From IMG/VR virus record IMGVR_UViG_3300025687_000146, positions 1-35,913 of that record: a stretch of DNA of 35,913 nucleotides; one strand, 5' to 3'. Of this stretch, positions 6,375-35,913 are shown piece by piece; the stretch's first letter is position 1; each line of letters starts with the position of its first letter. This DNA comes from a virus (taxonomy: Duplodnaviria > Caudoviricetes). The notes under the pieces were generated by a model. That model searched no databases and was not told the origin of the DNA. It saw only the letters and a program-made list of their open reading frames with translations. Position numbers and translations under genes: made by a program.

Positions 6375-6812
6375 ATGGTAGATGTAATAATAACAAATGA
6401 TAAAGACGATTTACAATTCAATTTTAAGGTAGCAAATAGTTTTAAGAACAAAAAATATCAACCAAGTATTGACGTACCTTTTATTGGAGCAAGTGCTGCT
6501 AATAGATTAATATTTAAGTTTACCGGACAAGCTCAAGATTACAGTTTTCCATTCGTATTATACGATGATGGAGTAGCAGTAGATAATAGTACTCATACAA
6601 GTCCAGTAATTACTTTAAGCGACCAAATAACTTATTTAATGGAAACCTTTTTTGTTTCGGACTTTGACGCAGAATACACAATAACCGTTAGTAGTGAAGG
6701 AATAAGCGCTACAGGAACAATAGAAAGCATAGAATTAGACACACCTACTGGTGGAAATATAAGAACAGGAACCTTAACGTTTAAGAGGGGAAGTTTGGTG
6801 GGACCAATATGA
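6375..6812 (+). CDS. Putative distal tail protein
   Basis: Position immediately after the TMP; 145 aa, beta-rich. Confidence 0.55.
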   Translation: MVDVIITNDKDDLQFNFKVANSFKNKKYQPSIDVPFIGASAANRLIFKFTGQAQDYSFPFVLYDDGVAVDNSTHTSPVITLSDQITYLMETFFVSDFDAEYTITVSSEGISATGTIESIELDTPTGGNIRTGTLTFKRGSLVGPI

Positions 6813-9374: not shown

Positions 9375-9943
9375 TGGCATTTACAGTAACAAAAACGTGG
9401 ACGGCAGAAGGTTTAGATTATGCTGACCTTAATCAAAACTTTACTGACGTAGAAACAGAAATAGATAGTATAGAAGCAATACAAGCAGCACAAGGATACC
9501 TAAAATATCAAGACTTAACATCTGGTAGTGTCGGAAACGTTAGTAGTGGAACTTATAAAACAGTAAGTATAACTCCAGCAATGTGGGACCAAAGAAGTTT
9601 ACGAGTTAAATTAGCTATGGATTACGTTACTAGCGGAGGAGGAACTAGGTCTTCGCAAATGGTGTTCGGAGGAACAAGTATAACATTGGCTAGTGGTGGG
9701 AGCTCAACTATTGCTGATAGGTATTATGAAGTAGAATTTTTTAAGACACAAGCAAGTGATGGTTCACAAACCATAGCTTACAGATTATGGAACAGTTCAG
9801 GGACCGGTTTTACTAGCGCAGGAGAAATATCAAGTTTTGACACTAGCGCCAGTAATAATTTAACAATAACTTACACAAGCAGCTTTACTGGAGGAAGCGC
9901 TAGTAGCAGCGTATTATGGATTGAGGTAGTATCGAGAGAATGA
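9374..9943 (+). CDS. Putative tail fibre / receptor-binding protein
   Basis: N-terminal 'YADLNQNF' anchor-like motif and a Ser/Thr/Gly-rich beta C-terminus. Confidence 0.55.
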   Translation: MAFTVTKTWTAEGLDYADLNQNFTDVETEIDSIEAIQAAQGYLKYQDLTSGSVGNVSSGTYKTVSITPAMWDQRSLRVKLAMDYVTSGGGTRSSQMVFGGTSITLASGGSSTIADRYYEVEFFKTQASDGSQTIAYRLWNSSGTGFTSAGEISSFDTSASNNLTITYTSSFTGGSASSSVLWIEVVSRE

Positions 9944-10569
9944 ATTGGCAATACTTAAAACTTTTATGGGATGACACACTAATACAAAACTTGTATAATG
10001 ACATAAGTGTATTAGAAGAACAAAAAGATTTATGTATTACTGATTTGAAAGAAGCAAAAAAAATTATAGATGACTTAATAAAAGAAAATGATATATTAAG
10101 AGCACTAAGTAATCAGGAAGAAACAATAATTGATATTGATGACGAAAGAATAAGTACAGGAACAAAAGAAATAGATAAGAAAAGCCCACACAGTAGTTTT
10201 AGCAGAAGAAAACTATTACAAATCAGTAAGAACATGTTAGCAGCAGATAAAAGATTATACGTCATACAACTCGCTGGTGACACTAATAGTATGGAACCAG
10301 ATATTGACGACCACACAATACTAATATTTGAGCGTTACGATGACGTAGCAAAGACCGTACCATTAAGCGAACAAGACATAGTTCAATACAAACACCCACA
10401 ATACAGTGGTTATTTCGTTCACAGAATCAGAGAAATAAAAAATGGCAAGTACCATATTAAAGGTGATAACAACCGATATTATGACGGCTGGTTTGATGAT
10501 ACAGTGATTAAAGGACGATACGTTGGAAAACTTATCGGAAAAGAAATGGATGGTGAAACCAATGACTAA
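9940..10569 (+). CDS. S26 (Sec11 / archaeal signal peptidase I-like) peptidase with an N-terminal coiled coil
   Basis: Motifs NSMEP, DIVQY, FVHRI and IKGDNN...D match the Ser-His S26B boxes. Confidence 0.75.
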   Translation: MNWQYLKLLWDDTLIQNLYNDISVLEEQKDLCITDLKEAKKIIDDLIKENDILRALSNQEETIIDIDDERISTGTKEIDKKSPHSSFSRRKLLQISKNMLAADKRLYVIQLAGDTNSMEPDIDDHTILIFERYDDVAKTVPLSEQDIVQYKHPQYSGYFVHRIREIKNGKYHIKGDNNRYYDGWFDDTVIKGRYVGKLIGKEMDGETND

Positions 10570-13591: not shown

Positions 13592-13632
13592 TTCTAACAC
13601 ATTATTTTGTTTAGGTATATGAGCTATAATGT

Positions 13633-13658
13633 AAAAGAAAAAGAGCCCTTAACGGGCT
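13633..13658 (-). terminator. Terminator of the minus-strand early operon
   Basis: AGCCC-TTAAC-GGGCT stem (13644-13658) followed on the minus strand by a U-rich run; lies between convergent genes. Confidence 0.55.
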
Positions 13659-13739
13659 TATATGGTATATTTAATCGAGTTCTATCTGTTCTGTACATAG
13701 CTTTCTATACTTGGTCTGTAATTCTCTAACTTTTTCATT

Positions 13740-13997
13740 CTAAATTACCTCCACGTGTTGTGGGTTTCCTATCGCTGTATGATGCCTCAATTCTTCCCTA
13801 ATACTCATTACTTCTTTAGAAATTAATTCTAAAGCTTCAAGAAAAAACAAAGTATCCGATTTCTCGGACTTTTGCTCTTCTTTAACAAGGTGTATTTGAG
13901 TATCAATATCATATAATTCCATATACGACTTTATTCCTTTCATTACCAATTCTTTATCTTCTTTACCAAGGTCTTTACAATTAACTTTAAATTCCAT
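13740..13997 (-). CDS. Hypothetical early protein
   Basis: AGGAG SD places the start at 13997 (MEFKVN...). Confidence 0.65.
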   Translation of the reverse strand: MEFKVNCKDLGKEDKELVMKGIKSYMELYDIDTQIHLVKEEQKSEKSDTLFFLEALELISKEVMSIREELRHHTAIGNPQHVEVI

Positions 13998-13998
13998 T

Positions 13999-14346
13999 TT
14001 AAAAACTCCTAAGTTCTTCAAGTAATTTTTTACGAATAACTTTGTACTTTTGAACTTGTTCAACAGCTTGCCGATAACTAATAATAGCAGCTCGATGTTC
14101 AGCTTTAACTAATTTCTTTGTTCTTGGTCTAACTTTATCTAATTCTTCTTCAACTTTTGTTTCCACAAAGTCAGTCGTATTTTTAGTTCCTAATAATTCT
14201 TGTTTTCTTCGTTCTATACTCTCAGTTAATGCTTGCAATTGTTCTTCTAACTGCATTCTTTTTGTTTCGTCTTGTTCTTGGTCTATCATTACTAATAGTT
14301 TTGTTCTTTCTTTTGCTAGTATGTTCATTGTTTTGTCTTGTATCAT
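13999..14346 (-). CDS. Coiled-coil hypothetical protein
   Basis: GAGGTG SD; E/K/Q/L-rich heptads. Confidence 0.7.
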   Translation of the reverse strand: MIQDKTMNILAKERTKLLVMIDQEQDETKRMQLEEQLQALTESIERRKQELLGTKNTTDFVETKVEEELDKVRPRTKKLVKAEHRAAIISYRQAVEQVQKYKVIRKKLLEELRSF

Positions 14347-14474
14347 TCTTGCACCTCATTATCTTGTTCTTCGTTTATGCACTCGTATCCTTTGTCAGTT
14401 TCGCAATCAAAATGTTCTGCGTTGAAGTCTGTATCTATGTGTTGGTCACAATAGTGACAGTATTGAATACTCAT
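14343..14474 (-). CDS. Small Cys/His protein (43 aa, not in the ORF track)
   Basis: Translates as MSIQYCHYCDQHIDTDFNAEHFDCETDKGYECINEEQDNEVQE; ATGA overlaps on both sides. Confidence 0.6.
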   Translation of the reverse strand: MSIQYCHYCDQHIDTDFNAEHFDCETDKGYECINEEQDNEVQE

Positions 14475-14647
14475 TGTAATTCCCTTATTCTTGCTGGAAT
14501 AACAATTAATTTATTACACTCGTCACAGCATGTTCCTTTATTTACTGGTCTTGCGTTGTTCCCGTATCCAACATGTGTTTCTTTACATATTGAACACTTG
14601 TAACTCATTAAGTTGTCGAAATCGTGTTCTCCTTCAAAGGTTGTCAT
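14471..14647 (-). CDS. Small zinc-binding viral protein
   Basis: CSIC...YGNNARPV..GTCCDECN..VIPAR motif. Confidence 0.7.
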   Translation of the reverse strand: MTTFEGEHDFDNLMSYKCSICKETHVGYGNNARPVNKGTCCDECNKLIVIPARIRELQ

Positions 14648-14751
14648 TATTCCCACACTCCTCTGTAACCAATATGAAACATTTGTCGGTTGAATCTTAT
14701 CGGTTTTTGAGTCAACTGGTATTGTTCGTTTAATTCCTTAATAGATTTCAT
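14647..14751 (-). CDS. Small hypothetical protein (34 aa, not in the ORF track)
   Basis: Translates as MKSIKELNEQYQLTQKPIRFNRQMFHIGYRGVWE and tiles exactly between its neighbours. Confidence 0.5.
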   Translation of the reverse strand: MKSIKELNEQYQLTQKPIRFNRQMFHIGYRGVWE

Positions 14752-14915
14752 TCTCTTAACCCCAACACCCATTCTAACATTGCTCTTCTAGTTCTTAAAG
14801 CAGAAATCCTATAAGGATTATAATCTTCGTAGTCTTCTTCGAGTTTTGCTCTTTCGATTTTTAATCCTTCAATTACTGCTTCCAACATTTCTTCTATTTC
14901 GTATTTACTTCTCAT
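14748..14915 (-). CDS. Small hypothetical protein (55 aa, not in the ORF track)
   Basis: MRSKYEIEEMLEAV...LEWVLGLRE; GGAGGTGA SD; ATGA overlaps. Confidence 0.65.
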   Translation of the reverse strand: MRSKYEIEEMLEAVIEGLKIERAKLEEDYEDYNPYRISALRTRRAMLEWVLGLRE

Positions 14916-15112
14916 TGTGTCACCTCCGAGAAAGCTTGGTAATAAGCTTCCTCAAGTGTTAATACGTCGTACTCGATACCTAAGTTTTTGAGTAATCTTT
15001 CGATTGCTTTTAGGTATGAGTTTTTTCTTAACGTTCTGTCTTCGTCTTTAGGAGTTGTTAGTCCTAATTCTTTTGCTGTTTTTATGATTGCGATTAATGT
15101 ATCCGTTTTCAT
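14912..15112 (-). CDS. Hypothetical early protein
   Basis: GAGGT SD and ATGA overlap. Confidence 0.65.
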   Translation of the reverse strand: MKTDTLIAIIKTAKELGLTTPKDEDRTLRKNSYLKAIERLLKNLGIEYDVLTLEEAYYQAFSEVTQ

Positions 15113-15297
15113 TTTCTTACCTCGTTTAATAAGTGTCCATATTCTTCAAAATCTATTTCCGCAAGGCATTCATAATAACATTTCTTACAGATAGGTCTTT
15201 CTTCACATTCCCCTGCTCCTGTGTCTCTTGTTAGTTTTCCACAATCTTCGCAGGTGTAACATCCACTTCTTTTTTTAAATAATGATGGATTATTCAT
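15109..15297 (-). CDS. Small zinc-finger protein
   Basis: CEDC...CKKC; GAGGTGA SD. Confidence 0.65.
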   Translation of the reverse strand: MNNPSLFKKRSGCYTCEDCGKLTRDTGAGECEERPICKKCYYECLAEIDFEEYGHLLNEVRK

Positions 15298-15380
15298 TGT
15301 GTCACCTCGTTTACTGCCCAGGCAATGATTGCGCCTGGATTTTCGTTGTGTAATTCTTCCAAAGTTATGTATTTATTCAT
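15294..15380 (-). CDS. Small hypothetical protein (28 aa, not in the ORF track)
   Basis: Translates as MNKYITLEELHNENPGAIIAWAVNEVTQ; GGAGGTG SD; tiles between its neighbours. Confidence 0.5.
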   Translation of the reverse strand: MNKYITLEELHNENPGAIIAWAVNEVTQ

Positions 15381-15704
15381 TTATAACACCTCCTCTATTC
15401 TTTTTGTTTTTTCATTGTATTCAGGATGACTAGTGAAATAATCTTCTAATACCATCCACAATGCTTCATCATCTGCCATTATTCTTTTTACGAATTGATT
15501 GAATGTTTCAGTTCTTATTTTGATTTCTTCTGTTACTTCTTCTACGTCTGTGTCTATCCAAGGACAACCAACGTTTCCTTCTGAGTCTTTGAACCATGCT
15601 CCGTCACTTCCGTCCCAGTCTATTTCTATAATGCTTCCTGCTGGTATTGTGTAGTTGTCATTGATTTTGTTGTCTTTTTTTGTTTTGTATGTTTTCCATG
15701 TCAT
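15381..15704 (-). CDS. First gene of the early operon, hypothetical
   Basis: GAGGTG SD favours ATG 15704 over 15731. Confidence 0.65.
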   Translation of the reverse strand: MTWKTYKTKKDNKINDNYTIPAGSIIEIDWDGSDGAWFKDSEGNVGCPWIDTDVEEVTEEIKIRTETFNQFVKRIMADDEALWMVLEDYFTSHPEYNEKTKRIEEVL

Positions 15705-15752
15705 TTTTTGCACCTCTGCGTTGTTTTTCATAATATAAGATTGGTATATACC

Positions 15753-15770
15753 TTTATAAAACTTTCTATT
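15753..15770 (-). promoter_or_regulatory. Archaeal-type BRE-TATA promoter of the early operon
   Basis: Minus strand reads AATAGAAAG-TTTTATAAA, about 22 nt before 15731. Confidence 0.6.
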
Positions 15771-16002
15771 TTTAAGCCTTTTTTAGCCTATTTTAAGCCA
15801 TTTTTACGTAAAAATGATACTTTTTCACGTAAAACTATTAATATAATATACTAAAATATAGTCCAATTACTTTATTTCAATATTGAAAATAAATATTATA
15901 ATATATATATTACATAATATATTTTATAAAATAATAAAATATTAAAAGAGCATAATTATAAAAATAGTATGGTGTGTATAAAAACAAAAATATCAGATTC
16001 TC

Positions 16003-16060
16003 GGGCAAGACTTATGTTTTCATATACGCACCTCGTTTATCAATTCTTTAAGTCTTGCCC
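16003..16060 (+). repeat. Perfect 12-bp inverted repeat with a 34-nt loop carrying an anti-SD sequence
   Basis: GGGCAAGACTTA (16003-16014) and TAAGTCTTGCCC (16049-16060); the loop contains TTTTCAT...GCACCTCGTTTA. Confidence 0.8.
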
Positions 16061-16087
16061 ATTTATTAAATACACAGAGGTGCAGTT

Positions 16088-18853
16088 TTGAATAAACAAT
16101 TTGAACACTTAACAAATATAGAAAAAATAAGCCCTTCGCCATTTAAAATATGCAGGAACAGATTACAAGAAACTAAATGGGTACCACATTATAAAGTTCC
16201 ATTAAACGAAAAAAATACTCCTTGTGACCATAGAACTGTATTAAGTAACGAAGTTATATTTGAATTAGATGCAAGAGCATGGGGTCAGAATAAAAAAATA
16301 GCTCTTATAATACTAGGTGCCCTAGAAGAACTTGAAATTCCGTACTATATGTACGCTACAGGAGGTAAAGGAGTCCATATAAGCATATATTTTAATAAAT
16401 TAGTATTAACTAAAGAACAAACTGAAACATTCAATACTGCGCTACGTTACGGCTTTACATGGAAGCATATACGATTATGGTTATTATATGATATAATATC
16501 TTATGCAGGATTAAGCGCAAGTACCGCAGGTAAAGGCGCAGGATTTATTATAGATACTGCGCCTATTTCATTTAATGAATTATATGACGGAACTCACTTA
16601 ATACGTTCATGTGGAGGTAGACATCAAGTATATAATAAAGAAGCAATGGATACAGAAACACATTACAAAACATTTATTACTAAAGATGACTTAAAATCGC
16701 GAAAACCTAGAGTAACAAACCTTGAACACGTAAATTATCCTAGCGAACTAGAAACATTTGATATTAATACTGAACTATTATTTAATTATATTGAATCTTT
16801 TATTAATAAAGCAATAGAGAATAAACAACAAAAATATGATGATATTAAATTAGATGGAGGTTTTATGGGTTTAGCGTGTATTCAAACATTACTAGATGGA
16901 ACTAGTGAAGGGCAAAGAAGCATGGGCGCACAAATGATTTCATCGGCATTAATACTAGATGATACACCTAAACCGTTAGAAATATTAAAAGATTATACTA
17001 ATAATTGTAAACAAACAGGTGATTCATTTACGCTTAGCGAAGCAACAAATTGGTATACATGGTTACAAAACCAGCCTTCTAATTTCTTTAATCATAAAAT
17101 AATGGAAGAAATGGGATGGTGTGATGGTACTTGTGAATATACAAAAATACTAAAAAAAGACGCTATTAAAGTACTAGAAAACTCTAAGTTGCTAGAACGA
17201 ATAAATAAATATATTGGAATAACAGTAGCTGGAGAAGAAAAAACTAGAGTATTATTATTTTTATTATTATTAAGCTCAAAATTTGATGTAAAAGGCAAAA
17301 ATAAAGGTATTGGGTCATGCTCGCCTCAGAGTATTATACTAAGTAGCAGTAGTAGTAGTGGTAAATCATGGGTAACTAAACAAATACTTAAATTATTTGG
17401 TGAAGATAGCCAAGTATATAGTAGAATGACAGCTAGTGTACTTAATTATTTCCAAGATGTTGATATGACCGGTAAAATCTTGTTTATTGAAGAATTACAA
17501 AGTTTAGACTCATCAAGTAATCAATTACGATTATGGATAAGCGAAGGAACACTTAAATTAGCAAGTGTTGAAAAAGAAAAAGATGATGACGGTGTTGAAA
17601 CTAATAAATTAACAGTTAAAAAGAATATTGGACAACCTGCTTTTATTACAGGTACAGCTGAAGATGAAATTGATGAACAAATGAGTAATAGGTCATGGCT
17701 TATAAGTATGGATATAACTACTTCACAAAATGCTAAAGTACTAGATTTTGCGGATAAAGTAGCAAAAGGTTTAATAGTTGATGATTTTATTGAACAACGT
17801 ATATTACAAGACGCAATAAAAGAATTAAAATCTTATGAAGTTATTATTCCGTTCCTTGATAGACATATATTAAATTTACCAATTGAAGATACACGTGTAA
17901 GAAGAGACTATAATAAGCTTAAAACACTTATTTGTTGTAGTGCTTTATTACATCAGTACCAAAGAGAAATTATTACCACGGATACAGGTAAACAGCTCTT
18001 AATAGCTGAATTTGATGATTACGAAATAGCAAGATATTACAGTATGGAAATACTAGAAAGTTCATTTGTAGGATTAACTAATCAGCAAATGGAAATACTA
18101 AATATTATTAGAGATAGTGCATGGTCACTTAATTTTACTGCGTCTCATATTCAAGTTAAGACAGGTTATAGTCAAAAGAAATGCTATACTATATTAAAAC
18201 AATTAGAAGAAGTTGGTGCAATTATTGTTGATGGAACACGTGAAATAGGTAAAACAACTACATTTATGATTAATACAGCAAAACGATTTGGGAGTTTAGA
18301 ATTGCCTAATAAAGATGATTTTATTGAGAAATTAACCTCTGAAAACACTATAATTGATGGCCAACCTATTCCAAAACCACGACTATTTTCTGAAGAAAAT
18401 GATGAAAATTCTCAGATTTATGACTTTGAAATTGCTAGAAAATTATGGCAAAAATTAGGTGAAAACGAAAATAATAGTCGGAGAAAAATACTAGGTTCAC
18501 CTAAAAAAATAATCATTAAAGCTTTAGAAACGGGTAATACAGACCATCTACCTCCACAATTCCAATTTGTTATAACCTATTCCAAAAACCTATTCCAAAA
18601 GGTATATATACTGTTCGCAAAACGTAAGTCAGATTCGGCCTCCGTTTACAAAACTGATGATAAGCCCGAAAAACTAGGTGAAATGACTAGGTTCACAAAA
18701 GAAGATATAATTAAAATATTTAATGAGTCAAATGAGCATTTAATTGACTTAGTTACATTAACTGATATGGGTATTCCAGAAGTCTTAATAAATAATATGA
18801 AAGCCGATGGCGATTTATACGAAGCTAAACCTGGGAGGTTTATGTTATTATGA
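16088..18853 (+). CDS. AEP primase fused to a PriCT/PriL-like domain, an MCM-related AAA+ helicase and winged-helix domains
   Basis: AEP motifs IFELD, TGGKGVHI and IID; 'EGQRS' and Cys residues; Walker A SSSSGKS, Walker B LFIEE, Arg finger SNRS, sensor-2-like RVRRD. TTG start with GAGGTG SD. Confidence 0.8.
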   Translation: MNKQFEHLTNIEKISPSPFKICRNRLQETKWVPHYKVPLNEKNTPCDHRTVLSNEVIFELDARAWGQNKKIALIILGALEELEIPYYMYATGGKGVHISIYFNKLVLTKEQTETFNTALRYGFTWKHIRLWLLYDIISYAGLSASTAGKGAGFIIDTAPISFNELYDGTHLIRSCGGRHQVYNKEAMDTETHYKTFITKDDLKSRKPRVTNLEHVNYPSELETFDINTELLFNYIESFINKAIENKQQKYDDIKLDGGFMGLACIQTLLDGTSEGQRSMGAQMISSALILDDTPKPLEILKDYTNNCKQTGDSFTLSEATNWYTWLQNQPSNFFNHKIMEEMGWCDGTCEYTKILKKDAIKVLENSKLLERINKYIGITVAGEEKTRVLLFLLLLSSKFDVKGKNKGIGSCSPQSIILSSSSSSGKSWVTKQILKLFGEDSQVYSRMTASVLNYFQDVDMTGKILFIEELQSLDSSSNQLRLWISEGTLKLASVEKEKDDDGVETNKLTVKKNIGQPAFITGTAEDEIDEQMSNRSWLISMDITTSQNAKVLDFADKVAKGLIVDDFIEQRILQDAIKELKSYEVIIPFLDRHILNLPIEDTRVRRDYNKLKTLICCSALLHQYQREIITTDTGKQLLIAEFDDYEIARYYSMEILESSFVGLTNQQMEILNIIRDSAWSLNFTASHIQVKTGYSQKKCYTILKQLEEVGAIIVDGTREIGKTTTFMINTAKRFGSLELPNKDDFIEKLTSENTIIDGQPIPKPRLFSEENDENSQIYDFEIARKLWQKLGENENNSRRKILGSPKKIIIKALETGNTDHLPPQFQFVITYSKNLFQKVYILFAKRKSDSASVYKTDDKPEKLGEMTRFTKEDIIKIFNESNEHLIDLVTLTDMGIPEVLINNMKADGDLYEAKPGRFMLL
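18363..18696. repeat. Iteron-like repeats inside the primase-helicase gene
   Basis: AACCTATTCCAAAA at 18363, 18574 and 18587; ACTAGGTTCAC at 18490 and 18686; AAAAA(T/C)TAGGTGAAA at 18450 and 18669. Confidence 0.7.
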
Positions 18854-19429: not shown

Positions 19430-19756
19430 ATGCCATCTTCTTTTTTACATGATATGTTCTTGAAACAAACAAATCTTCAAGAAAAACTGGGAAATGATGT
19501 AAATAGTCAAGCATTTATTAATGAAATGATACTATGCACTGTTGATGAATTAATGGAAGCATTACGAGAAACACCATGGAAGAGTTGGAAAAAAAATCAA
19601 GAATTACACACAGAAAAATTCAAAGAAGAGATTATTGATATATGGCATTTTATTATTAATCTATCACTAGCAAGTGGTATGGGACCACAAGAAGTTTATG
19701 ATAGATTTATTAATAAAAACAAAATCAATATTAAAAGACAGGAGGATAATTACTAA
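19430..19756 (+). CDS. All-alpha NTP pyrophosphatase (dimeric dUTPase/dCTPase, MazG-like)
   Basis: DELMEAL...PWKSWK...EEIIDIWHF...KN..N..RQ. Confidence 0.85.
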   Translation: MPSSFLHDMFLKQTNLQEKLGNDVNSQAFINEMILCTVDELMEALRETPWKSWKKNQELHTEKFKEEIIDIWHFIINLSLASGMGPQEVYDRFINKNKINIKRQEDNY

Positions 19757-19757
19757 A

Positions 19758-20195
19758 ATGAAATACGATTTTTATTTAGCAAGTGGTTGGTTTAGTCCAG
19801 ACCAAGAAGCAGGCAGACAAACAATTTTAGATATAGCTAATGAGTTAGGTCTAACATATTTTAGTCCAAAGGATGAAATTGTTTGTGCTCCAGGCGCTAC
19901 GATAGAGCAACAAGAAAAAGTATTTAGTGGTAATATTGATGCAATAAAAAATTCAAGATTTGTTGTTGTCAACACAGCCGGCAAAGACATGGGTACTATA
20001 TTTGAAGCAGGGGCGTCTTATGTATTAAATAAACCTATTATTTATTTGTGTCTAGGGCTAAAAGGTAATTTTAATTTAATGCTTAGTAGAAGTGGTGCAG
20101 CAGTAGCAACAACTAAAGATGAATTAAGAGAACACTTATCTAGAATACAAAATGAACCGTATTACCGAAAAGAATATATAGGTAACATAGAATGA
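19758..20195 (+). CDS. Nucleoside 2-deoxyribosyltransferase / nucleotide N-glycosidase family
   Basis: YLASGWFS, FSP, DMGTIFEAG (catalytic Glu) and NLML; GGAGG SD before ATG 19758. Confidence 0.85.
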   Translation: MKYDFYLASGWFSPDQEAGRQTILDIANELGLTYFSPKDEIVCAPGATIEQQEKVFSGNIDAIKNSRFVVVNTAGKDMGTIFEAGASYVLNKPIIYLCLGLKGNFNLMLSRSGAAVATTKDELREHLSRIQNEPYYRKEYIGNIE

Positions 20196-20692
20196 ACAAA
20201 GCAATACTTGATGAAATGTATAGTCTAAAAAATATAATTAGATATAACAATTTACCAAGAATAAAAGACGAGAGCGTAGCAGAACATAGCTACTTTGTCG
20301 CTCTTATTGTTACCGAATTATACAAAGAATACCGTTTTGATTTAGGTAAAGCATTACTAACAGCTATTGTTCATGATATTGCAGAAATATGGATTAGTGA
20401 TATTCCGCGAAATATTAAAAACAATCATCACGAACTAGAATTATTAATGGATAAAATAGAATTAAATATTGTTAAAGAAAAATATCCTGAGCATTTGTCT
20501 CTTATTAAAGACTTTAATTACAAAAGAACAATTGAAGGATTAATTGTAAAACTCGCAGATTGTTATAGTGTATTACAATACGCAGAACAAGAAGTAAAAC
20601 TAGGTAGTACATTTTATATGCCAGATGTAATAAAACAGGCTAAAAAATATATTAAAATACTAGAAAAAACTTTGAGAGTGTGCAAAAGATGA
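20192..20692 (+). CDS. HD-domain 5'-deoxynucleotidase / dNTPase (YfbR-like)
   Basis: RY...ESVAEHSY...VHDIAE...SDIP...VKLAD. Confidence 0.88.
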   Translation: MNKAILDEMYSLKNIIRYNNLPRIKDESVAEHSYFVALIVTELYKEYRFDLGKALLTAIVHDIAEIWISDIPRNIKNNHHELELLMDKIELNIVKEKYPEHLSLIKDFNYKRTIEGLIVKLADCYSVLQYAEQEVKLGSTFYMPDVIKQAKKYIKILEKTLRVCKR

Positions 20693-21132
20693 AACCAATA
20701 CTATTAATAATTGATGGAATGGATAGAACCGGTAAGACGTCAGTAATAAAAGAAATTAATAAACAAACTAATTACGCGCCTCTTATTATAGATAGAGGCC
20801 CAATTGGGTATAAAGCATATAGCGAATTATTTAATAAAGATAATAAACCAGAAGATTATGATATGCTTGAAACAAGTTTATTACATGTTAATCACTTATG
20901 TGTTTATTTATTTGCTGATGAAAATATAATATACAATAGATGTATTGATACTAATGAACCACTTATTTATAAAGGTATTAGAGAAAACTTAAGGCTATAC
21001 AAAAAATACTATGACAAATCTATTTTAAACAAAATAATACTAGATAGTGGTAAGTATACAACGAAAGAAATAGTAAAAATAATATTAAACGAGGTAGAAA
21101 AAAATGGTAATAAAAATAAATGCAACTTTTAA
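20689..21132 (+). CDS. dNMP (thymidylate-like) kinase
   Basis: P-loop IDGMDRTGKTS, IIDRG and lid Arg; ATGA overlap. Confidence 0.85.
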   Translation: MKPILLIIDGMDRTGKTSVIKEINKQTNYAPLIIDRGPIGYKAYSELFNKDNKPEDYDMLETSLLHVNHLCVYLFADENIIYNRCIDTNEPLIYKGIRENLRLYKKYYDKSILNKIILDSGKYTTKEIVKIILNEVEKNGNKNKCNF

Positions 21133-21364
21133 AACAAAAGGCAATAAAGAAGAAGCACAACCTTTAACACCTAGCGTGTTTATAACAGATAATGATGGAA
21201 CATTACATGTTCATAATTTGGAAGCAGGATTAGAAGTCTTAAAAGATATGATATGGAGAGATTGTTATGCTAAAAGAACTGAACCAAAAAAAGTTACGTA
21301 CAGATATAATATAGAAGAAGTTAAAGAACGAAAAAAACTAGGATACCCGGAGTTGAAACCATGA
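21104..21364 (+). CDS. Hypothetical protein inside the nucleotide operon
   Basis: GAGGT SD; overlaps both neighbours. Confidence 0.6.
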   Translation: MVIKINATFKTKGNKEEAQPLTPSVFITDNDGTLHVHNLEAGLEVLKDMIWRDCYAKRTEPKKVTYRYNIEEVKERKKLGYPELKP

Positions 21365-22197
21365 AAGATTTCCCAGAAGCAATAAGATTTAATGAAAAAC
21401 CAACAACTAAGTATTATAATAGTAAAAATAATATTAAAGTTACAATGTTACAATCTCCACCAAAAGATTTTAGAGATACGTGTTGCGAAATGATTATGAG
21501 TACATGGAAAGATGATGCTAACCAAGAAACATTATATAATGAAGAAATTATTAATGATTTATTTAGTTTTAAAGTGTTACCTAATTCAATGGAAGCCTTT
21601 AATTTTACTTTTAAAATTGAAGGTTTAACTCATATTGAGTCAACACATATGTTAAGACACCGAACTTTTAAAGGTATTCATTACCAATGCAGTGGAGACC
21701 GATTCTTAACTCATGATAGTGTATTTATACCAAGCAGTATAGAAAACTCAGAATTTAATGATAGATATAGAAAAATAACAGAGGACACTAAACAATTATA
21801 TCAAGATATGGTTGATAGTAAAAAAATAAGTTTAATGGATGCACGATACATATTAAATCGTAATCATAGATACTTTGCATACTTTACCATGAATATAAAA
21901 GAAGTACTAGCATTTATTAACCAAAGAAAATGTACAATGATACAACCCGAATTAGATAATGTTATTGCTAAACAAATATACGAGTTGGTAATAAAAGAAA
22001 TTCCTGAGTTATCAAAAGTACTAACGTTGAAATGTGGGCCAAAGTGCCATTTTATAATTAGTAAACCTGAAAGGAACACAAGATTATATAAGCCAGATAA
22101 GACACATGCTAAATACATGACTGATGACCATGGTTCAATATATAATAATACAAGACTTGAAATGGGGTGTGAATACGATGAACAAGATAGAGATTGA
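21361..22197 (+). CDS. thyX: Flavin-dependent thymidylate synthase-like protein (divergent ThyX)
   Basis: FTFKIEG, LRHRTFKGIHYQCSGDR, DARYIL and QRKC..IQPE. The spacing differs from canonical RHRx7S. Confidence 0.75.
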   Translation: MKDFPEAIRFNEKPTTKYYNSKNNIKVTMLQSPPKDFRDTCCEMIMSTWKDDANQETLYNEEIINDLFSFKVLPNSMEAFNFTFKIEGLTHIESTHMLRHRTFKGIHYQCSGDRFLTHDSVFIPSSIENSEFNDRYRKITEDTKQLYQDMVDSKKISLMDARYILNRNHRYFAYFTMNIKEVLAFINQRKCTMIQPELDNVIAKQIYELVIKEIPELSKVLTLKCGPKCHFIISKPERNTRLYKPDKTHAKYMTDDHGSIYNNTRLEMGCEYDEQDRD

Positions 22198-22588
22198 AAT
22201 ACCGCATGTAAGTGATGATTATTTCGAGAAAAAAAATGTTAGTTTTACATTTACTAATCAAGATAAACCATTAGGTGACTTGTTTACTAATACACACGAT
22301 GTTCTATATTATGATAGGTTAAGAGCTGAACTTAACCATTTATTTTATAGATACGAAATCGGGCTACTTGGCAATAGACAAATTATTTTAGTTAGTGATG
22401 AATGTATTAGTATGATACACATACTACCATCACCAGAACTAACTATTGTTAATGTATACCAGCGAAGTTGTAATTACAAAACTTCGTTCAAAGAAGATAT
22501 AGGTTTTATAATAGATTATTTTATGCAACAACATCAAAATGTAGAAATAAATTATAAAATAGGGAGTCTACATTATTATAAAAAATGA
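22178..22588 (+). CDS. Miniature ThyA-fold protein (thymidylate synthase / dCMP hydroxymethylase-like, 136 aa)
   Basis: NRQII, ECISMIH (Cys nucleophile), VYQRSCNYKTSFKED and IGSLHYY; GGGGTG SD before ATG 22178. Confidence 0.7.
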   Translation: MNKIEIEIPHVSDDYFEKKNVSFTFTNQDKPLGDLFTNTHDVLYYDRLRAELNHLFYRYEIGLLGNRQIILVSDECISMIHILPSPELTIVNVYQRSCNYKTSFKEDIGFIIDYFMQQHQNVEINYKIGSLHYYKK

Positions 22589-24384
22589 TACCTAAAAACG
22601 TACTAGTATTTGATATTGAAACAGACGGATTAGATACAAGTAAATGTAATATGAAATCGTTTCATGCGTATTCTTACAAGACCAAAGAATACTATAACTT
22701 ATTCGAAGAAGATATACAACAAATTAAAGAAATATTAATTGACCACCACGCATTTGTAACATTTAATGGTGACCAATTCGATATACCTATACTAGAACGT
22801 ATTCTTGGTTTAAAACTAAGATATAATAGGTCACTTGATTTATTAAAGCTTATTAGAAAAAGAGAATCCTTGATAAGATATAAAGGGTTTAAATCAAAGT
22901 CTTTAGCAAATGTTTGTAAAGTATTAGGATTAGAAGAACTTAAACAAGAAGGATTCGATTATACAATACTACAACAAGATAGTTTCACACAAGAAGAAAA
23001 AGCGTTAATAATTAAGTATGGTAAACAAGATATTAAAACAACAAAATCCTTATTTGAATACTTGTATAAATATTTCTATTTTTATAAAGACCATATTAGT
23101 AAAAAAGATAATGATAACTGGGCATGGTTAATGACAAGCCCTGGAACTTATGCGTATAAAGCAGTATGCCATTTATCTGGTATTAAAGAAGAATGGCCAA
23201 GTGACGCAGAAACAGAAGCTAATAAACAGACTAGTCTAACTTTCCCAGGAGGATATGTTAGTAAACCAAGCAGTAAACTAGAAAGAGGCAAAATATATTG
23301 TCTTGATTTCAATAGCGCGTATCCTCACGCTTATATGATGATGAATTTATTCGGGTACGATTGTACTTGTTGTACACCAGAAGAAAAATTTACTGGTACC
23401 GATATATATAAATTAAACGGTGCTTATTGTACAAAAAAACTAAATCCAATAAGTGAAACTATTAAAAAATTATATCATACACGATTAAAATATAAAAAGA
23501 ACAAGGACCCAAGAGAAGTAGCACTAAAAATAATTTTAAATACATTATACGGTATTTGTGGTAATCCAACTTTTAAAAACGTATTCAATCTTAATACAGC
23601 TAAGGATTGCACATTATTCGTTAGAGAAACATTAAAGTACGCAAGAAATGAATTTGATAAAATGGGTTACAGAATTATTTATAGTGATACTGACAGTATA
23701 TATTTAGCAGATGATTTCAATGACGAAAAACGATTAATGAAAGTTAAAGATAAAATTATTAAAAAAATAAATGAGGATACACCTTTCCCACAAAGTACTT
23801 ATGACCTTGGTATCGATGACAGAATTAAGTTCATGTTTTTTCCTGGAGAAAAAAAGAAATCATATTTGTATTTAAATAATGAGAACAAAGTAGTAATAAA
23901 AGGTTTACCATTAATTAAAAATAATGCTAGTCATTTAAGCATGGTAATATTCAAGAAATACATTGAACCTATTATTATTAAAGACCACGAAGTATTATTT
24001 AATAGTAAACAATTATATTCATGGATAAAAACAGAACTAGAAAATGATATAACACTCGCAGGAATAGAATGGAAAGTAGATAAACCGTCGTCTTATAAAA
24101 ATAAAACACAAATACAGTATCAAATAGCAGAAGAATATGGAAAAGGAATACACTTGCTTATACCAAATATAAGAGGAATAGGTATAGGTAAAGCCAAGAG
24201 TTATTGTACTATTGATGAATTCAAAAAATATAATATTAAATGGAATGAAATAGACTTAGAAAAAACGTATAGTGAATTACAAATCTTTACAGAAGGAACA
24301 CTAAAACAAATAGCAATAAAAATAAAAAGTAAAAATGGTAAGAAGTTAATGATACCTAATACTCTTGGAGATTGGATACAATGA
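22585..24384 (+). CDS. polB: Family B DNA polymerase (minimal, with 3'-5' exonuclease)
   Basis: ExoI FDIET, ExoII FNGDQFD, ExoIII YGKQD; polymerase motifs DFNSAYP, KIILNTLYG, YSDTDS, KKSY and KGL. Confidence 0.95.
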   Translation: MIPKNVLVFDIETDGLDTSKCNMKSFHAYSYKTKEYYNLFEEDIQQIKEILIDHHAFVTFNGDQFDIPILERILGLKLRYNRSLDLLKLIRKRESLIRYKGFKSKSLANVCKVLGLEELKQEGFDYTILQQDSFTQEEKALIIKYGKQDIKTTKSLFEYLYKYFYFYKDHISKKDNDNWAWLMTSPGTYAYKAVCHLSGIKEEWPSDAETEANKQTSLTFPGGYVSKPSSKLERGKIYCLDFNSAYPHAYMMMNLFGYDCTCCTPEEKFTGTDIYKLNGAYCTKKLNPISETIKKLYHTRLKYKKNKDPREVALKIILNTLYGICGNPTFKNVFNLNTAKDCTLFVRETLKYARNEFDKMGYRIIYSDTDSIYLADDFNDEKRLMKVKDKIIKKINEDTPFPQSTYDLGIDDRIKFMFFPGEKKKSYLYLNNENKVVIKGLPLIKNNASHLSMVIFKKYIEPIIIKDHEVLFNSKQLYSWIKTELENDITLAGIEWKVDKPSSYKNKTQIQYQIAEEYGKGIHLLIPNIRGIGIGKAKSYCTIDEFKKYNIKWNEIDLEKTYSELQIFTEGTLKQIAIKIKSKNGKKLMIPNTLGDWIQ

Positions 24385-24821
24385 TAATACTACAAGACAC
24401 AAGGGAACAAAAACCATATTGGAGGAATAAAAAAAATGAAATCGAAACAAAAACGCTCAAAACAGGCGACTATTCAATTAAAGGTATGGAAACACGAATT
24501 GCTATCGAAAGAAAAAGTATGGCGGACTTATTTGGTACTCTCGGAAAAGGACACAAAAGATTTAAACGCGAAATCTCTAGAGGTTTGGAAATGGACTATT
24601 TTGGAATTTATATCGAAGGTACTGAAGAGAAAATTAGAAATAAGGATTTCCCTGGTAGCTATTACAGTAAGATGCGAGGATTTATTATACTTAAAATCCT
24701 TAAGACCATTGAGACTCGCTACGGAGTTGATGTCGTATACTGTGATAACAGAAACGGGTGCAAAAAAGCAATCAAAAAAAAATTTAAAGATTTCATAGAG
24801 GAACACAATGATAAAATCTAG
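24381..24821 (+). CDS. ERCC4/XPF-domain nuclease (putative resolvase)
   Basis: DTREQ, TGDYS and IERKSMADL. Confidence 0.9.
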   Translation: MIILQDTREQKPYWRNKKNEIETKTLKTGDYSIKGMETRIAIERKSMADLFGTLGKGHKRFKREISRGLEMDYFGIYIEGTEEKIRNKDFPGSYYSKMRGFIILKILKTIETRYGVDVVYCDNRNGCKKAIKKKFKDFIEEHNDKI

Positions 24822-25047
24822 AATAGGAATATTAGATAAAATAAGACCACGAGTAACTAAAAAAGGTCAAAAAGTTTTGACTGTGTGGATACAAGGGATA
24901 GATTACACTTGTTGGGAATGCCGTGATTATACAATGTGGATGAACAAACAAGTTAAAGTAATATACAAAGAAGCACCGTACGGTGATAACATATTATATA
25001 TTGGAGAACCAAATAAAATAATACCATTAGAGGTAATGATAAAATGA
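24808..25047 (+). CDS. Small hypothetical protein, possibly OB-fold
   Basis: 'RVTKKGQKVLTVWI' resembles OB-fold strands; GAGG SD. Confidence 0.5.
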   Translation: MIKSRIGILDKIRPRVTKKGQKVLTVWIQGIDYTCWECRDYTMWMNKQVKVIYKEAPYGDNILYIGEPNKIIPLEVMIK

Positions 25048-25448
25048 CAATAAAACAATTATTTGAACAATGTAATGATATAGCACAAAATAGTGATTGC
25101 AAACGCGGTAAAGTAGGCGCTATACTCATACGAAAAAACAATAGTATTATAGGAACAGGCTATAATACTATTCCAAATAAAACACCTTGTACTAATACTA
25201 ATTGTGATATGAGTAAACGTTGTAAACAAACCGTTCATGCTGAAATCGCTGCTTTATTAAATATTAATTCGCGCAAAGACTTATACGCAATAATATTATC
25301 ATTATCACCGTGTTTAACATGCGCTAAAATAATAGTATACGCTGGAATACAAAAAGTTTATTATGACAAAAAATATTCAAATCCGGATGGAATAAATTAT
25401 TTAAAAAATAACGGAATAAAAATAATACAAAAGGAGGAATTAAAATGA
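25044..25448 (+). CDS. dCMP deaminase
   Basis: C.RGKVGA, TGYN, VHAE and SPCLTCAK zinc-deaminase motifs. Confidence 0.9.
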   Translation: MTIKQLFEQCNDIAQNSDCKRGKVGAILIRKNNSIIGTGYNTIPNKTPCTNTNCDMSKRCKQTVHAEIAALLNINSRKDLYAIILSLSPCLTCAKIIVYAGIQKVYYDKKYSNPDGINYLKNNGIKIIQKEELK

Positions 25449-33713: not shown

Positions 33714-33982
33714 TGGCGTTACCAAAGAGTAGAGAGGATAGAGAACAAAGAAAGTTCGTAGAGAACACTGACGGTGACGTTGCTGTAAGAGTGCTTAATT
33801 TTGGTGACTTAATACCTGACAGTTATGATTATATAGCATTAACTTATGTTGCTGCAGGTAATGGTGCTGGACAAATAGAAACAGTAACTTATAAGACAGG
33901 AGGGGCTAGTGGAACGACTATTGCCGTACTTACGTTAGCGTATAACGGCGATAATAATTTGTCCTCAGTTACTAAAGCATAA
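33713..33982 (+). CDS. Hypothetical virion protein
   Basis: YDYIALTY...TVTYKTGGASGT...LTLAY pattern; coupled to the fibre gene. Confidence 0.6.
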   Translation: MALPKSREDREQRKFVENTDGDVAVRVLNFGDLIPDSYDYIALTYVAAGNGAGQIETVTYKTGGASGTTIAVLTLAYNGDNNLSSVTKA

Positions 33983-35913
33983 TGGTATCTTACACTTTTA
34001 ATCCTTTCACTGGTAAACTTGATGCTTTAAGTATTGAGGATTTAAGTCCTTACGTTCCTTATACTGGAGCAACTGCTGATATTGACTTAGGTAATTATGC
34101 TTATACACAAAATCAAGCAACTAGTAATGTTAATTATTTTGGTTTGTCTAATATTCGTGGAATGAGAGTAACTAATGCTATAGATGCCGGTACTGGCGGT
34201 TATTTCTTTTTTAGTGCTACAGATAATGTTGGAACTATGAAGTTTGACCCTAAAGATTACGCTACTAATGTTGAATTGCGTTTTGACGGAGAATTTAATC
34301 GTATTGAAATTGATAATCCTATTTTAATTGATGCCAGTGGTAGTGGTAGTAGTGACCCTGACATTCAGATTCAGAACGGTACTGACATTACTAGCATGAC
34401 TTCTTCACAAATAACCACTACTGACGGCAGTGTTGCTACTTTAATTACTGCAGCGACTATTGAGGGTTCTCCTACTATTATTCAAGACCAGAACGAACAA
34501 GACACTAACGTTTTAGAAGTTATAGATGGTAGTGTCAGTGCTACTCCTTCAGGAACTGCCTCGTGTTTATACGATAATGCTTTTCCAGGAGACTATGATG
34601 ATTTCTGGACTGGTAACGGAACTTCTTGGTTGACTGACTTATCCGCTGGTGATTTAATAAGTATTAATGGTGAGTCGTGGACTGTTAAGACTGTTTCTTC
34701 AGATACTCAAATGTATACTGTTAAGAGTCCTCAATTATATCTTCCTTTTGGAGGCCCTACTTATGGACCTTACAGCATTACTGTTGACGGAGCCATCGGT
34801 TTATTGATTAATAGCGATGGTAAGTTCGAGTCTGATTTATTGCCTGAAGCAGATTCTAATTTTGGTCTTGGCAGTACTAGTTTGCGTTGGATTAATACAT
34901 GGACTGACAATCTTAATGGTAGTGACGTAACTACTTTATTGAGCGAAGTTAGTGATGCTTATGCTCACATAACAGCAGACGGTAGCAGTCACACTTTCAT
35001 CAATCAATCAGTTACTACTACTGCAGACCCAACATTTAATGACTTAACATTAACTACTAATTTAACAACTCCACAAATAACTTCTACAGGGGGTGCGGGA
35101 AGTACTTTTACTCCCATAGCTCATTACTTATTTAATGATGACGCAACTGATGAAATAAGTGGTTACGACTTTACGACAGTTTCGGGAGCAACTTATAATA
35201 CAGGAAAAATTAATAACGCAATATACTTTGACGGTATTGATGATTACGCGCAAATTACTGATGACGGAACTCTTGACTTAAATAGTGATTTCAGTATAAG
35301 TTTTTGGATGCGTTCAGCAACTTCAGGAAGTAATGATTCAATGATTGAAAAATGGCAGTCTAGTGGAGCTAGAAATTTCGTTATTTTCCAAGGAAGCTCA
35401 GGAGTACTAATTGCACAAGTAAGCGACGGTACTGCAGTAAATATTATAGGAAGCACTGATTTAAGTGATGACGCCTGGCACCACGTAGTATTCGTTAGGG
35501 ATAGGACTGGTGACAATCAATTAAAATTATACGTTGATAATTCTAGTGACGCAACACCAGTTACTGATGGCCGAGGAACAATAACTAATAACGCAGTCGT
35601 TGCCGTAGGTAGAAGAAGCAACGGAACTCAACACTGGCAGGGTTATATTGACGACTTAAGATTTTATGACAAGGCATTATCTACTGAAGAAATATCGGCA
35701 ATTTATAATTCTGATAGTGGAACAGAAACTAGTACTTTGGGAGGTTTAGGTCCTGGTCCTTTAACTATTACTGACGGAACCGATACGTTAGTTTTTAATC
35801 AAGGCGGTTTACAATTCGATTTAAGTCCAGCAATAACCACTCCTGAAGAAGGACTATTATACTGGAATAGTGACGATGGAACACTTAATCTTGGAATGCC
35901 TGGAGGCAATGTT
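33982..35913 (+). CDS. Fibre-like virion protein with a LamG domain, 3' truncated (not in the ORF track)
   Basis: Frame is open from ATG 33982 to the window end (644 codons). Motifs FNPFTGKLD, YVPYTGAT and QSVTTTADPTF; LamG at about 35110-35720 (FDGIDDY, WHHVVF, GYIDDLRFYDKAL). Confidence 0.8.
   Translation, partial: MVSYTFNPFTGKLDALSIEDLSPYVPYTGATADIDLGNYAYTQNQATSNVNYFGLSNIRGMRVTNAIDAGTGGYFFFSATDNVGTMKFDPKDYATNVELRFDGEFNRIEIDNPILIDASGSGSSDPDIQIQNGTDITSMTSSQITTTDGSVATLITAATIEGSPTIIQDQNEQDTNVLEVIDGSVSATPSGTASCLYDNAFPGDYDDFWTGNGTSWLTDLSAGDLISINGESWTVKTVSSDTQMYTVKSPQLYLPFGGPTYGPYSITVDGAIGLLINSDGKFESDLLPEADSNFGLGSTSLRWINTWTDNLNGSDVTTLLSEVSDAYAHITADGSSHTFINQSVTTTADPTFNDLTLTTNLTTPQITSTGGAGSTFTPIAHYLFNDDATDEISGYDFTTVSGATYNTGKINNAIYFDGIDDYAQITDDGTLDLNSDFSISFWMRSATSGSNDSMIEKWQSSGARNFVIFQGSSGVLIAQVSDGTAVNIIGSTDLSDDAWHHVVFVRDRTGDNQLKLYVDNSSDATPVTDGRGTITNNAVVAVGRRSNGTQHWQGYIDDLRFYDKALSTEEISAIYNSDSGTETSTLGGLGPGPLTITDGTDTLVFNQGGLQFDLSPAITTPEEGLLYWNSDDGTLNLGMPGGNV

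Follow-up and report, generated by a model that had tools for sequence, protein, structure and literature searches.

The window analyzed here, the 35,913-nucleotide record IMGVR_UViG_3300025687_000146, is most of a tailed virus genome (GC about 33%; a longer 39.9-kb contig exists) and contains major capsid, tail tube, tape measure, terminase and portal genes. Positions 19430-25448 hold a cluster of eleven intact plus-strand genes in translational coupling: successive genes are spaced by +1 to -29 nt, and six junctions are ATGA-type overlaps of 4 nt (Table 1). An earlier note on this DNA had described a tight run of nucleotide-metabolism genes around two thymidylate-synthase folds, and the run is as named: every gene is present, intact and coupled on the plus strand, and the family calls hold. 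Profile searches, AlphaFold models and Foldseek comparisons of the genes confirm the ThyX fold and the ThyA fold, and the two proteins are termed ThyX* and ThyA*. Together with a nucleoside 2'-deoxyribosyltransferase (NDT) and a 5'-deoxynucleotidase, ThyX* belongs to a module that is likely to make some modified pyrimidine.

The ThyX* model has a predicted local distance difference test (pLDDT) score of 94.1, and its Foldseek matches are ThyX and Streptomyces PolB (E about 1e-9). The protein scores 43.5 bits against TIGR02170, for which the cut-off is 87.9. Positions follow T. maritima ThyX numbering, counted by hand and checked against residues named in papers. The window protein has L73 for H53, T95 for R74, H96 for Q75, C110 for S88, G112 for R90 and D113 for Y91, and it retains R78/R80, R147, R174 and Q180. 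The family was assembled from 243 sources, which gave 228 full-length ThyX* proteins (7 fragments shorter than 240 aa were dropped) and, at 90% identity, 73 clusters. In every cluster His53 is replaced by Leu, Ser88 by Cys, Tyr91 by Asp, Gln75 by His, Arg90 by Gly or Ala and Arg74 by Thr or Ser, and all 73 retain the flavin-binding Arg78 and Arg80, Arg147, the uracil-activating Arg174 and Gln180. The canonical ThyX motif RHRx7S with Ser88, Arg90 and Tyr91 is absent from ThyX*. In ThyX, His53 stacks on the folate pteridine (PMC11940539), Ser88, Arg90 and Tyr91 aid carbon transfer and Arg174 activates dUMP (PMC8316439). A second, canonical ThyX lies within 6 kb of ThyX* in 43 of 80 raw loci and in 11 of 37 non-redundant, well-flanked loci, and these 43 copies have the His motif (43/43) and the Ser-x-Arg-Tyr motif intact. 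Since a canonical ThyX is so often nearby, ThyX* is probably not the dTMP maker. As read from its residues, ThyX* is very probably a flavoenzyme with a job other than dTMP synthesis.

Gene linkage was counted in the 37 well-flanked clusters, which have at least 6 kb on either side and include the window and Geobacillus phage GR1, and in a looser set of 51 with at least 2.5 kb; they come from locus searches limited to the best 80 of 134 and the best 80 of 153 viral matches and the best 80 of 189 metagenome matches. NDT is the sole strict partner of ThyX*, present in 37/37 well-flanked loci and in 49/51 of the looser set. A nucleotidase is present in 45 of the 51, from the HD family in 21 and the HAD family in 24, with both in none and neither in 6, so that the two types are mutually exclusive across ThyX* loci. 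Other neighbors in the 37 loci are dUTPase-2 (33), kinase (23), an NAD-dependent epimerase (20), ThyA* (18) and dCMP deaminase (7), and the recurring families include no conserved one-carbon supply gene. This recurrence in dozens of non-redundant viral loci, of the kind that the earlier note had proposed to look for, rules out chance as the reason for the grouping. ThyX*, NDT and a nucleotidase form the conserved core, rather than the pair of ThyX and ThyA folds on which the note centered, and a search that had the B. subtilis plasmid pBS32 as positive control detected no ThyA* in the complete genomes G003 and G004. A 217-aa neighbor family, considered as a divergent ThyA*, gave no match to it.

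ThyX* is almost confined to viruses and phage-plasmids. Besides the window protein, 63 homologs were found at E ≤ 1e-20, and a scan of 185,579 species genomes returned 2 loci, both on contigs of metagenome-assembled genomes. Plasmid records with 80% or more coverage of ThyX* number 41, and all 15 among the matches listed are from Bacillus. The module is not peculiar to an archaeal virus, as had been suggested, because it is also found in the cultured phage GR1 and in pBS32, the phage-like plasmid of B. subtilis NCIB 3610 (NC_021809.1). The pBS32 locus (L245:7965-13956) has NDT (WP_013603320), HD, kinase-like, ThyX* (WP_013603328) and ThyA* (WP_013603329) genes in GR1 order; it lacks the glucosyltransferase and nitroreductase of GR1, and a GIY-YIG gene occupies the glucosyltransferase position. 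ThyA*-bearing modules also occur on contigs binned to Clostridia and Ruminococcus.

The window NDT retains Tyr6 and Glu83 of the catalytic triad, and its acid/base Asp is replaced by Asn59; Asp77 and Asn106 are kept. Among 62 ThyX*-linked NDTs, Tyr and Glu are invariant (62/62), Asn stands at the acid/base position in 60, and the Asp/Asn pair is kept in all 62, as in the nucleoside-level enzyme 6EVS. Asp77 and Asn106 are taken here to occupy phosphate-site positions and to mark nucleoside-level enzymes; N-hydrolases of the DNPH1/Rcl/MilB type, which act on a deoxynucleoside monophosphate (dNMP), have small uncharged residues that leave space for the 5'-phosphate. With these residues retained, it is less likely that deoxyribose 5-phosphate is what the NDT releases from a dNMP. 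The active phage hydrolase DmtZ likewise has a natural Asn at the acid/base position (PMC12884076).

The ThyA* model (pLDDT 94.7) matches thymidylate-synthase-family structures (VIA Z 9.9, root-mean-square deviation 3.1, 132 aligned). Its top Foldseek match is the HY126 dCMP hydroxylase AfhB (9IQU, E 6e-5; also 9IQC), tied with ThyA structures, and a 30-row family profile places T4 dCMP hydroxymethylase (gp42, E 3.6e-8) ahead of L. casei 1NJC and HY126 AfhB. PF00303 (ThyA) has no match in the window, GR1, pBS32, G003 or G004. The window protein has C76 (E. coli C146), R96/S97, N99 (E. coli D169), D107 (E. coli N177, T4 D179) and H132. In 65 non-redundant ThyA* rows, Cys146 is present in 64, Arg166/Ser167 in 62, the cytosine-specifying Asp177 in 62 and His207 in 61, with gaps in the remainder; position 169, aligned in 62, is Asn in 39, Asp in 16 and another residue in 7. 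Neither the folate-binding Asp169 nor a full-length domain of about 245-265 aa is found in window ThyA*, which has Asn99 and 136 aa. D169N with N177D is the signature of flavin-dependent 5-hydroxy-dCMP synthases, or dCMP hydroxylases (PMC13326640), and the D169N mark is present in the window protein but in only 39/62 family members. The kinase is fused to ThyA* in 25 of 53 ThyA* matches, and a dNMP kinase is present in 51/53 ThyA* loci. ThyA* lies far from ThyX* in the large genomes G005 and G006. Every ThyA* locus counted was reached via ThyX*, and locus searches seeded with ThyA* itself returned nothing. Methylenetetrahydrofolate (CH2-THF) is probably the carbon donor for neither synthase, so the assay with this donor that the earlier note proposed would likely come up blank.

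Table 1. Genes of the cluster in the window, with the matches that support each assignment; the starts of the NDT, kinase, ThyA* and ERCC4 genes are corrected
Feature	Position	Strand	Evidence
dUTPase/MazG-type dNTP pyrophosphatase, dimeric, 108 aa	19430..19756	+	Pfam dUTPase_2 E 1.7e-15; PDB 1W2Y E 4e-6
NDT (nucleoside 2'-deoxyribosyltransferase/N-hydrolase family), 145 aa	19758..20195	+	PF05014 Nuc_deoxyrib_tr E 8e-13; PDB 6EVS E 1e-7
HD-domain YfbR/DatZ-like 5'-deoxynucleotidase, 166 aa	20192..20692	+	HD_3/YfbR-like E 3.4e-16; PHROG 7076 E 3.9e-22
P-loop dNMP kinase-like, 147 aa	20689..21132	+	PHROG 761 thymidylate kinase E 1.6e-8; Pfam weak (0.027)
Hypothetical protein hyp86, 86 aa, not conserved	21104..21364	+	No meaningful family match
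ThyX*, non-canonical flavin-dependent thymidylate-synthase fold, 278 aa	21361..22197	+	Thy1 E 4.4e-20
ThyA*, minimal cytosine-type thymidylate-synthase-fold core, 136 aa	22178..22588	+	AlphaFold and family profile; no Pfam match
Family B DNA polymerase with proofreading domain, 599 aa	22585..24384	+	PF00136 (DNA_pol_B E 7e-18), PF13482
ERCC4-type nuclease, 146 aa	24381..24821	+	PF02732 E 5.6e-11; PHROG 3490
Second small hypothetical protein, 79 aa	24808..25047	+	No family match
dCMP deaminase, accessory, 134 aa	25044..25448	+	PF00383 E 3.9e-19; PHROG 174 E 2.9e-34

The family B polymerase, the ERCC4-type nuclease and hyp86 are outside the conserved module. Across 86 sources, the polymerase and hyp86 were seen in the window alone and ERCC4 in one further locus; the cluster membership given in the earlier note therefore holds for coupling in the window and not for these three as module parts. 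The polymerase has intact catalytic motifs and is genome-specific. A search of 50,697 phage records gave no match to it, and its position is taken by a PHP-domain polymerase gene in GR1 and pBS32. The best matches of the polymerase, the ERCC4-type protein and a signal peptidase are archaeal-type NCBIfam models, all below cut-off. This virus-encoded signal-peptidase-like protein (S24/S26; 9940-10569) is closest to an archaeal type I model. These matches do not confirm the archaeal host that the earlier note assumed, and the records of relatives carry no host names. An ESM Atlas search returned unnamed clusters only, under 0.9, and a search for RNA holders listed none. Elsewhere, 16088-18853 encodes a 921-aa protein of uncertain start codon with a weak N-terminal primase-polymerase match and a helicase-like middle. 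GC and AT skews flip within 13600-16080, which separates the structural block from the replication block, is for the most part minus-strand or non-coding and is a candidate origin or early region. Two large LamG/concanavalin-like proteins lie amid the virion genes (6809-8803 and 33982-35913).

The chemistry tentatively favored for the module is a flavin-dependent, folate-free reaction that reductively alkylates C5 of a pyrimidine dNMP, with deoxyribose as the donor. This proposal draws on the loss of the folate and catalytic residues in 73/73 ThyX* clusters while neighboring canonical ThyX copies keep them, on the strict NDT link with a near-constant nucleotidase, on the pairing of NDT with Thy1-family proteins in phages SP-15, Carin-5 and YerA41 together with a 346 mass in YerA41, and on ThyX chemistry that already takes a free aldehyde. 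Free formaldehyde is accepted by ThyX via a flavin N5-carbinolamine, after which the exocyclic alkylidene is reduced (PMC8316439). From the folds, residue losses and gene linkage we infer a series of chemical steps, a base and a donor. The nucleotidase and NDT would free 2-deoxyribose, and reduced flavin adenine dinucleotide in ThyX* would capture the sugar aldehyde in the way that ThyX captures formaldehyde; alternatively, the new Cys would activate the ring. Alkylation and reduction at C5 would give a 5-(3,4,5-trihydroxypentyl) base (predicted neutral nucleoside mass 345.15 for dC and 346.14 for dU), which the kinase, with ThyA* where present, would pass as a modified nucleotide to the polymerase and DNA. 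ThyA* is likely a Cys-dependent accessory of dCMP type, with a part in substrate activation or, alongside the kinase, in tailoring of the product. The competing canonical dNTP would likely be lowered by the dNTP pyrophosphatase, and glycosyltransferases may decorate the chain in some relatives (GR1, L177 and, on a by-eye reading, L095). In its broadest form the proposal is possible but more doubtful: ThyX* may join a DNA pyrimidine to free deoxyribose by a C-C bond to give a 5-(trihydroxypentyl)cytosine (or -uracil) nucleotide, of which the literature searched has no description, in widespread viruses, pBS32 included, and the same logic may explain the SP-15 and YerA41 linkers.

Five-carbon-sized linkers are carried on thymidines of SP-15, Carin-5 and YerA41, and the available text of the papers that describe them proposes a hydroxymethyl-dU route without mention of NDT and leaves the biosynthesis of the chain unestablished (PMC5977210, PMC12686479, PMC13697223, PMC9023294). 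Dihydroxypentyluracil (DHPU) is made before replication (PMC5977210). YerA41 has an unexplained 'T + 104' nucleoside of unit mass 346 (PMC9023294). The computed mass of dU plus deoxyribose minus O is 346.14 Da, which equals this fragment at unit mass and is the product expected from reductive alkylation. Ribose label was reportedly found in the DHPU chain, according to the title of a 1978 paper. SP-15 encodes NDT (gp127), a reductase (gp129) and the Thy1-like gp130 side by side and also has a canonical ThyX (gp9). SP-15, Carin-5 and YerA41 each pair NDT with a Thy1-family protein that appears, in an alignment read by eye, to lack the His. Relatives of gp130 occur in 9 phages, and NDT in 9/9 of these. 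The window NDT matches 8 phage records, which include GR1, GXN1, Carin-5, YerA41 and GN1, and a search of the 50,697 phage records with the Carin-5 NDT returned just 7 of the 9 gp130 phages and GR1. Asn is at the acid/base position in 7/7 gp130-linked NDTs, and the position is Asp in 2/2 salvage-type controls.

Orthology of SP-15 proteins with ThyX* or ThyA* was considered and rejected. ThyX* is not an ortholog of SP-15 gp130 (hhalign probability 3%; SP-15 is not among the ThyX* tblastn matches), ThyA* is not contained in gp127 or gp130, and SP-15-type phages have clear ThyA* matches in 0/5. As separate observations, within SP-15 L082:28730-31911 gp127 resembles a tandem NDT with its active site split between halves and gp130 resembles a tandem ThyX. 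A FabG-like reductase lies near gp130 in both phages with an 88-Da linker (SP-15 and Carin-5); the YerA41 linker is 104 Da.

The modified base leans only slightly to cytosine over uracil, on the evidence of ThyA* Asp177, T4 gp42 as the structure nearest by sequence, the GR1 glucosyltransferase and site usage. The GR1 cluster holds a gene of the T4 alpha-glucosyltransferase family (E 6e-53) and a nitroreductase. Locus L177 encodes a TAGT-like protein (E 8e-5, below the Pfam cut-off). In L095:158-1780, ThyX* is fused C-terminally to a 260-aa domain that is GT-A glycosyltransferase-like by eye and has no Pfam or PHROG match; a separate homolog of this domain lies just upstream of ThyX* in L173. 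Glycosyltransferases inside the clusters of relatives point to a hydroxyl-bearing base.

Palindrome usage was compared in the 37 ThyX* loci of at least 15 kb. GATC is depleted in 9 of these interrelated loci, a count with no unmodified control, and for CCGG, GGCC, GCGC and CGCG, which could be tested in 21, 31, 27 and 15 loci, respectively, none falls short of 0.35 of expectation. GATC occurs 0 times against 60 expected in the window and 117 against 255 in GR1; GAATTC (2/11 observed/expected), GATATC (1/7) and CATATG (1/6) are also low in the window, and GGCC and GCGC are not depleted in the window, GR1 or G005. SP-15 (45 kb) depletes the GC-only sites CCGG (1/21) and GGCC (0/13). In 80 kb each, GXN1 depletes GGCC (2/12) and Carin-5 CGCG (1/8), the YerA41 counts are too low to judge, and GATC is not depleted in Carin-5 or YerA41. 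Compared without unmodified control phages, the pattern suggests what cytosine rather than thymine modification would leave.

Several observations weigh against deoxyribose alkylation or against cytosine as its target. Arg74 and Arg90, which we take to be phosphate ligands, are missing from ThyX*, which may act on a substrate other than a dNMP. Simple degradation of a canonical nucleotide could be all that the NDT and nucleotidase do, the window ThyA* bears the published D169N mark of dCMP hydroxylases, and no glycosyltransferase is detected in the window by Pfam or PHROG. Because gp130 is not orthologous to ThyX*, the SP-15 link consists of analogy and a shared NDT type; SP-15's own NDT is not among the window NDT matches, and a quick NDT tree leaves the Asn-type enzymes unresolved as a clade, with two controls nested inside on weak branches. 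The 346 agreement goes no further than unit mass and concerns YerA41, not the ThyX* family. The palindrome pattern comes from related loci without an unmodified control, G005 shows no depletion, and GR1 may replicate as a plasmid. Uracil is favored by ThyX* Arg174, the window dCMP deaminase, the SP-15 analogy and the PF03167 extra domain, presumably a uracil-DNA glycosylase domain, on 3/62 relatives of the window polymerase (P0128, P0137 and P0144); SP-15-type products are uracil derivatives, while the sequence hints lean to cytosine. The PF03167-bearing relatives echo the uracil-DNA glycosylase-fused A-family polymerases of T-modified phages.

A rather unlikely alternative is hydroxylation with flavin and O2 to 5-hydroxy-dCMP, in which ThyA* would be a miniature dCMP hydroxylase, ThyX* would supply reduced flavin or hydroxylate via its new Cys, and the nucleotidase and NDT would purge the canonical nucleotide. 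The Asn169/Asp177 signature of the window ThyA* (PMC13326640), the AfhB structures as its top fold matches, the nitroreductase and T4-type glucosyltransferase of GR1 and a palindrome pattern that fits cytosine modification all speak for it. The AfhB match is, however, tied with ordinary ThyA structures (Z 9.9 each), Asn169 is found in just 39/62 ThyA* proteins, and ThyA*, some 100 residues short of the length of AfhB, was not detected in the complete G003 and G004. Clostridia and Ruminococcus, to which ThyA*-bearing contigs are binned, are anaerobes, and the strict NDT link is left unexplained.

Some other folate-independent C5 modification also has a low probability. Formaldehyde or acetaldehyde, as the source of a one- or two-carbon unit, would give a 5-methyl-, 5-hydroxymethyl- or 5-ethyl-pyrimidine, or a base-swapping NDT would put a free base or nucleoside modified by ThyX* on deoxyribose. 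Hydroxymethylcytosine is the substrate of T4-type glucosyltransferases, the core from which ThyA* derives is of dCMP hydroxymethylase type, and the loss of R74 and R90 fits a non-phosphorylated substrate. ThyX can use formaldehyde (PMC8316439), and a phage NDT that moves sugar to a modified base is known in DmtZ (PMC12884076). Against this stand the lack of a conserved one-carbon supply gene among the recurring neighbors and the SP-15-type parallel, which it does not explain.

Ordinary supply, with ThyX* an atypical dTMP synthase, the other enzymes engaged in salvage and pool cleaning and the DNA canonical, is improbable. The window, GR1 and pBS32 have no second Thy1 match, GR1, pBS32, G003 and G004 have no ThyA match, and dUTPase with dCMP deaminase is the usual dUMP supply; the contigs were all sequenced by standard methods, with GATC still avoided. 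A dTMP synthase would nevertheless have lost its catalytic and folate residues in 73/73 homologs, often with a canonical ThyX in the same locus, and the nucleotidase and N-glycosidase would waste its dTMP; the glycosyltransferases fused or adjacent in relatives also argue against it. The earlier note's preference for precursor-level pyrimidine modification over plain dTTP supply is very probably right, given the ThyX* residue losses, the canonical ThyX beside it, its near-confinement to viruses and phage-plasmids and the glycosyltransferases in relatives. A complete purge of the canonical base, which the note also inferred, is not supported to date. A role outside DNA, in which the module alters or destroys nucleotides against host defense or poisons host replication and its product stays out of viral DNA, draws on three nucleotide-degrading enzymes and on the killing of the host by pBS32 after DNA damage with no particles seen (PMC10601692) but is very improbable, because 51/53 ThyA* loci have a dNMP kinase, either linked to ThyA* or fused with it, the cluster sits among replication genes and the pBS32 toxicity is attributed to SigN itself (PMC10601692).

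Characterized viral C5-pyrimidine precursors are made by ThyA-fold enzymes with folate (hydroxymethylcytosine, hydroxymethyluracil and methylcytosine) or with flavin and O2 (hydroxycytosine). Different chemistry, and probably a new DNA base, is suggested by a widespread ThyX-fold family that has no folate site and is tied strictly to an enzyme that releases sugar. Deoxyribose alkylation, if true, would offer a concrete, testable route to the pentyl linkers of SP-15, Carin-5 and YerA41, a question open since the 1970s, and the whole module is present in cultured GR1 and on pBS32, which makes it testable now in harmless laboratory strains. Thousands of ThyX*-like genes may carry an ordinary thymidylate synthase annotation, as the named relatives here do. 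The earlier note knew of no characterized pathway with this combination, and none was found in the literature searched, which leaves out most subscription journals and supplements; the same search found no paper on GR1 and none on trihydroxypentyl uracil in phage.

Precursor-level base modification is a known kind of system, and neither the ThyX* enzyme family nor the chemistry proposed for it is known. ThyX* shares with ThyX (T. maritima TM0449, PF02511, TIGR02170) and Streptomyces PolB the fold, the RHR flavin motif, R147, R174 and Q180. It differs from ThyX in H53 to L, S88 to C, R90 to G/A, Y91 to D, R74 to T/S, E86 to A and Q75 to H, in the new invariant W49, D160, N200 and R265, in a C-terminal extension and in its score under the TIGR02170 cut-off. 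The Z-genome pool enzymes DatZ, MazZ and DmtZ (PMC12884076) have in common with the module an HD hydrolase, a MazG-like enzyme and an Asn-type NDT; in contrast, the window lacks PurZ, its synthases are of pyrimidine type, and DmtZ acts on dAMP. The window NDT retains the Asp/Asn pair, which we assume marks the nucleoside-level type.

The T4 pathway (gp42, gp1, gp56 and alpha-glucosyltransferase) has in common with ThyA* the Cys, the Arg-Ser pair, the cytosine-specifying Asp and the His, and with the module a kinase and a dimeric dNTPase; the GR1 glucosyltransferase is of the T4 alpha family. ThyA* has 136 aa against 246 for gp42, the folate-binding Asp is mostly Asn in ThyA*, and the T4 pathway needs neither a ThyX-fold protein nor NDT. 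The 5-hydroxy-dCMP synthases RB69 gp48, DLP3 gp80 and HY126 AfhB (PMC13326640) share D169N with N177D and the top or tied fold match with window ThyA*, and the likeness may extend to folate-free chemistry. Unlike in these enzymes, D169N is not conserved across ThyA* (39/62), and ThyA* is much shorter and linked to ThyX* and NDT. SP-15, Carin-5 and YerA41 share with the module a divergent Thy1-family protein, an Asn-type NDT and an HD or HAD phosphatase in the genome, and, as in ThyX* loci, a canonical ThyX may accompany these genes (SP-15 gp9). Unlike ThyX*, gp130 has about 410 aa and apparently two ThyX-like halves, and SP-15-type phages avoid GC-only palindromes, whereas ThyX* genomes do not.

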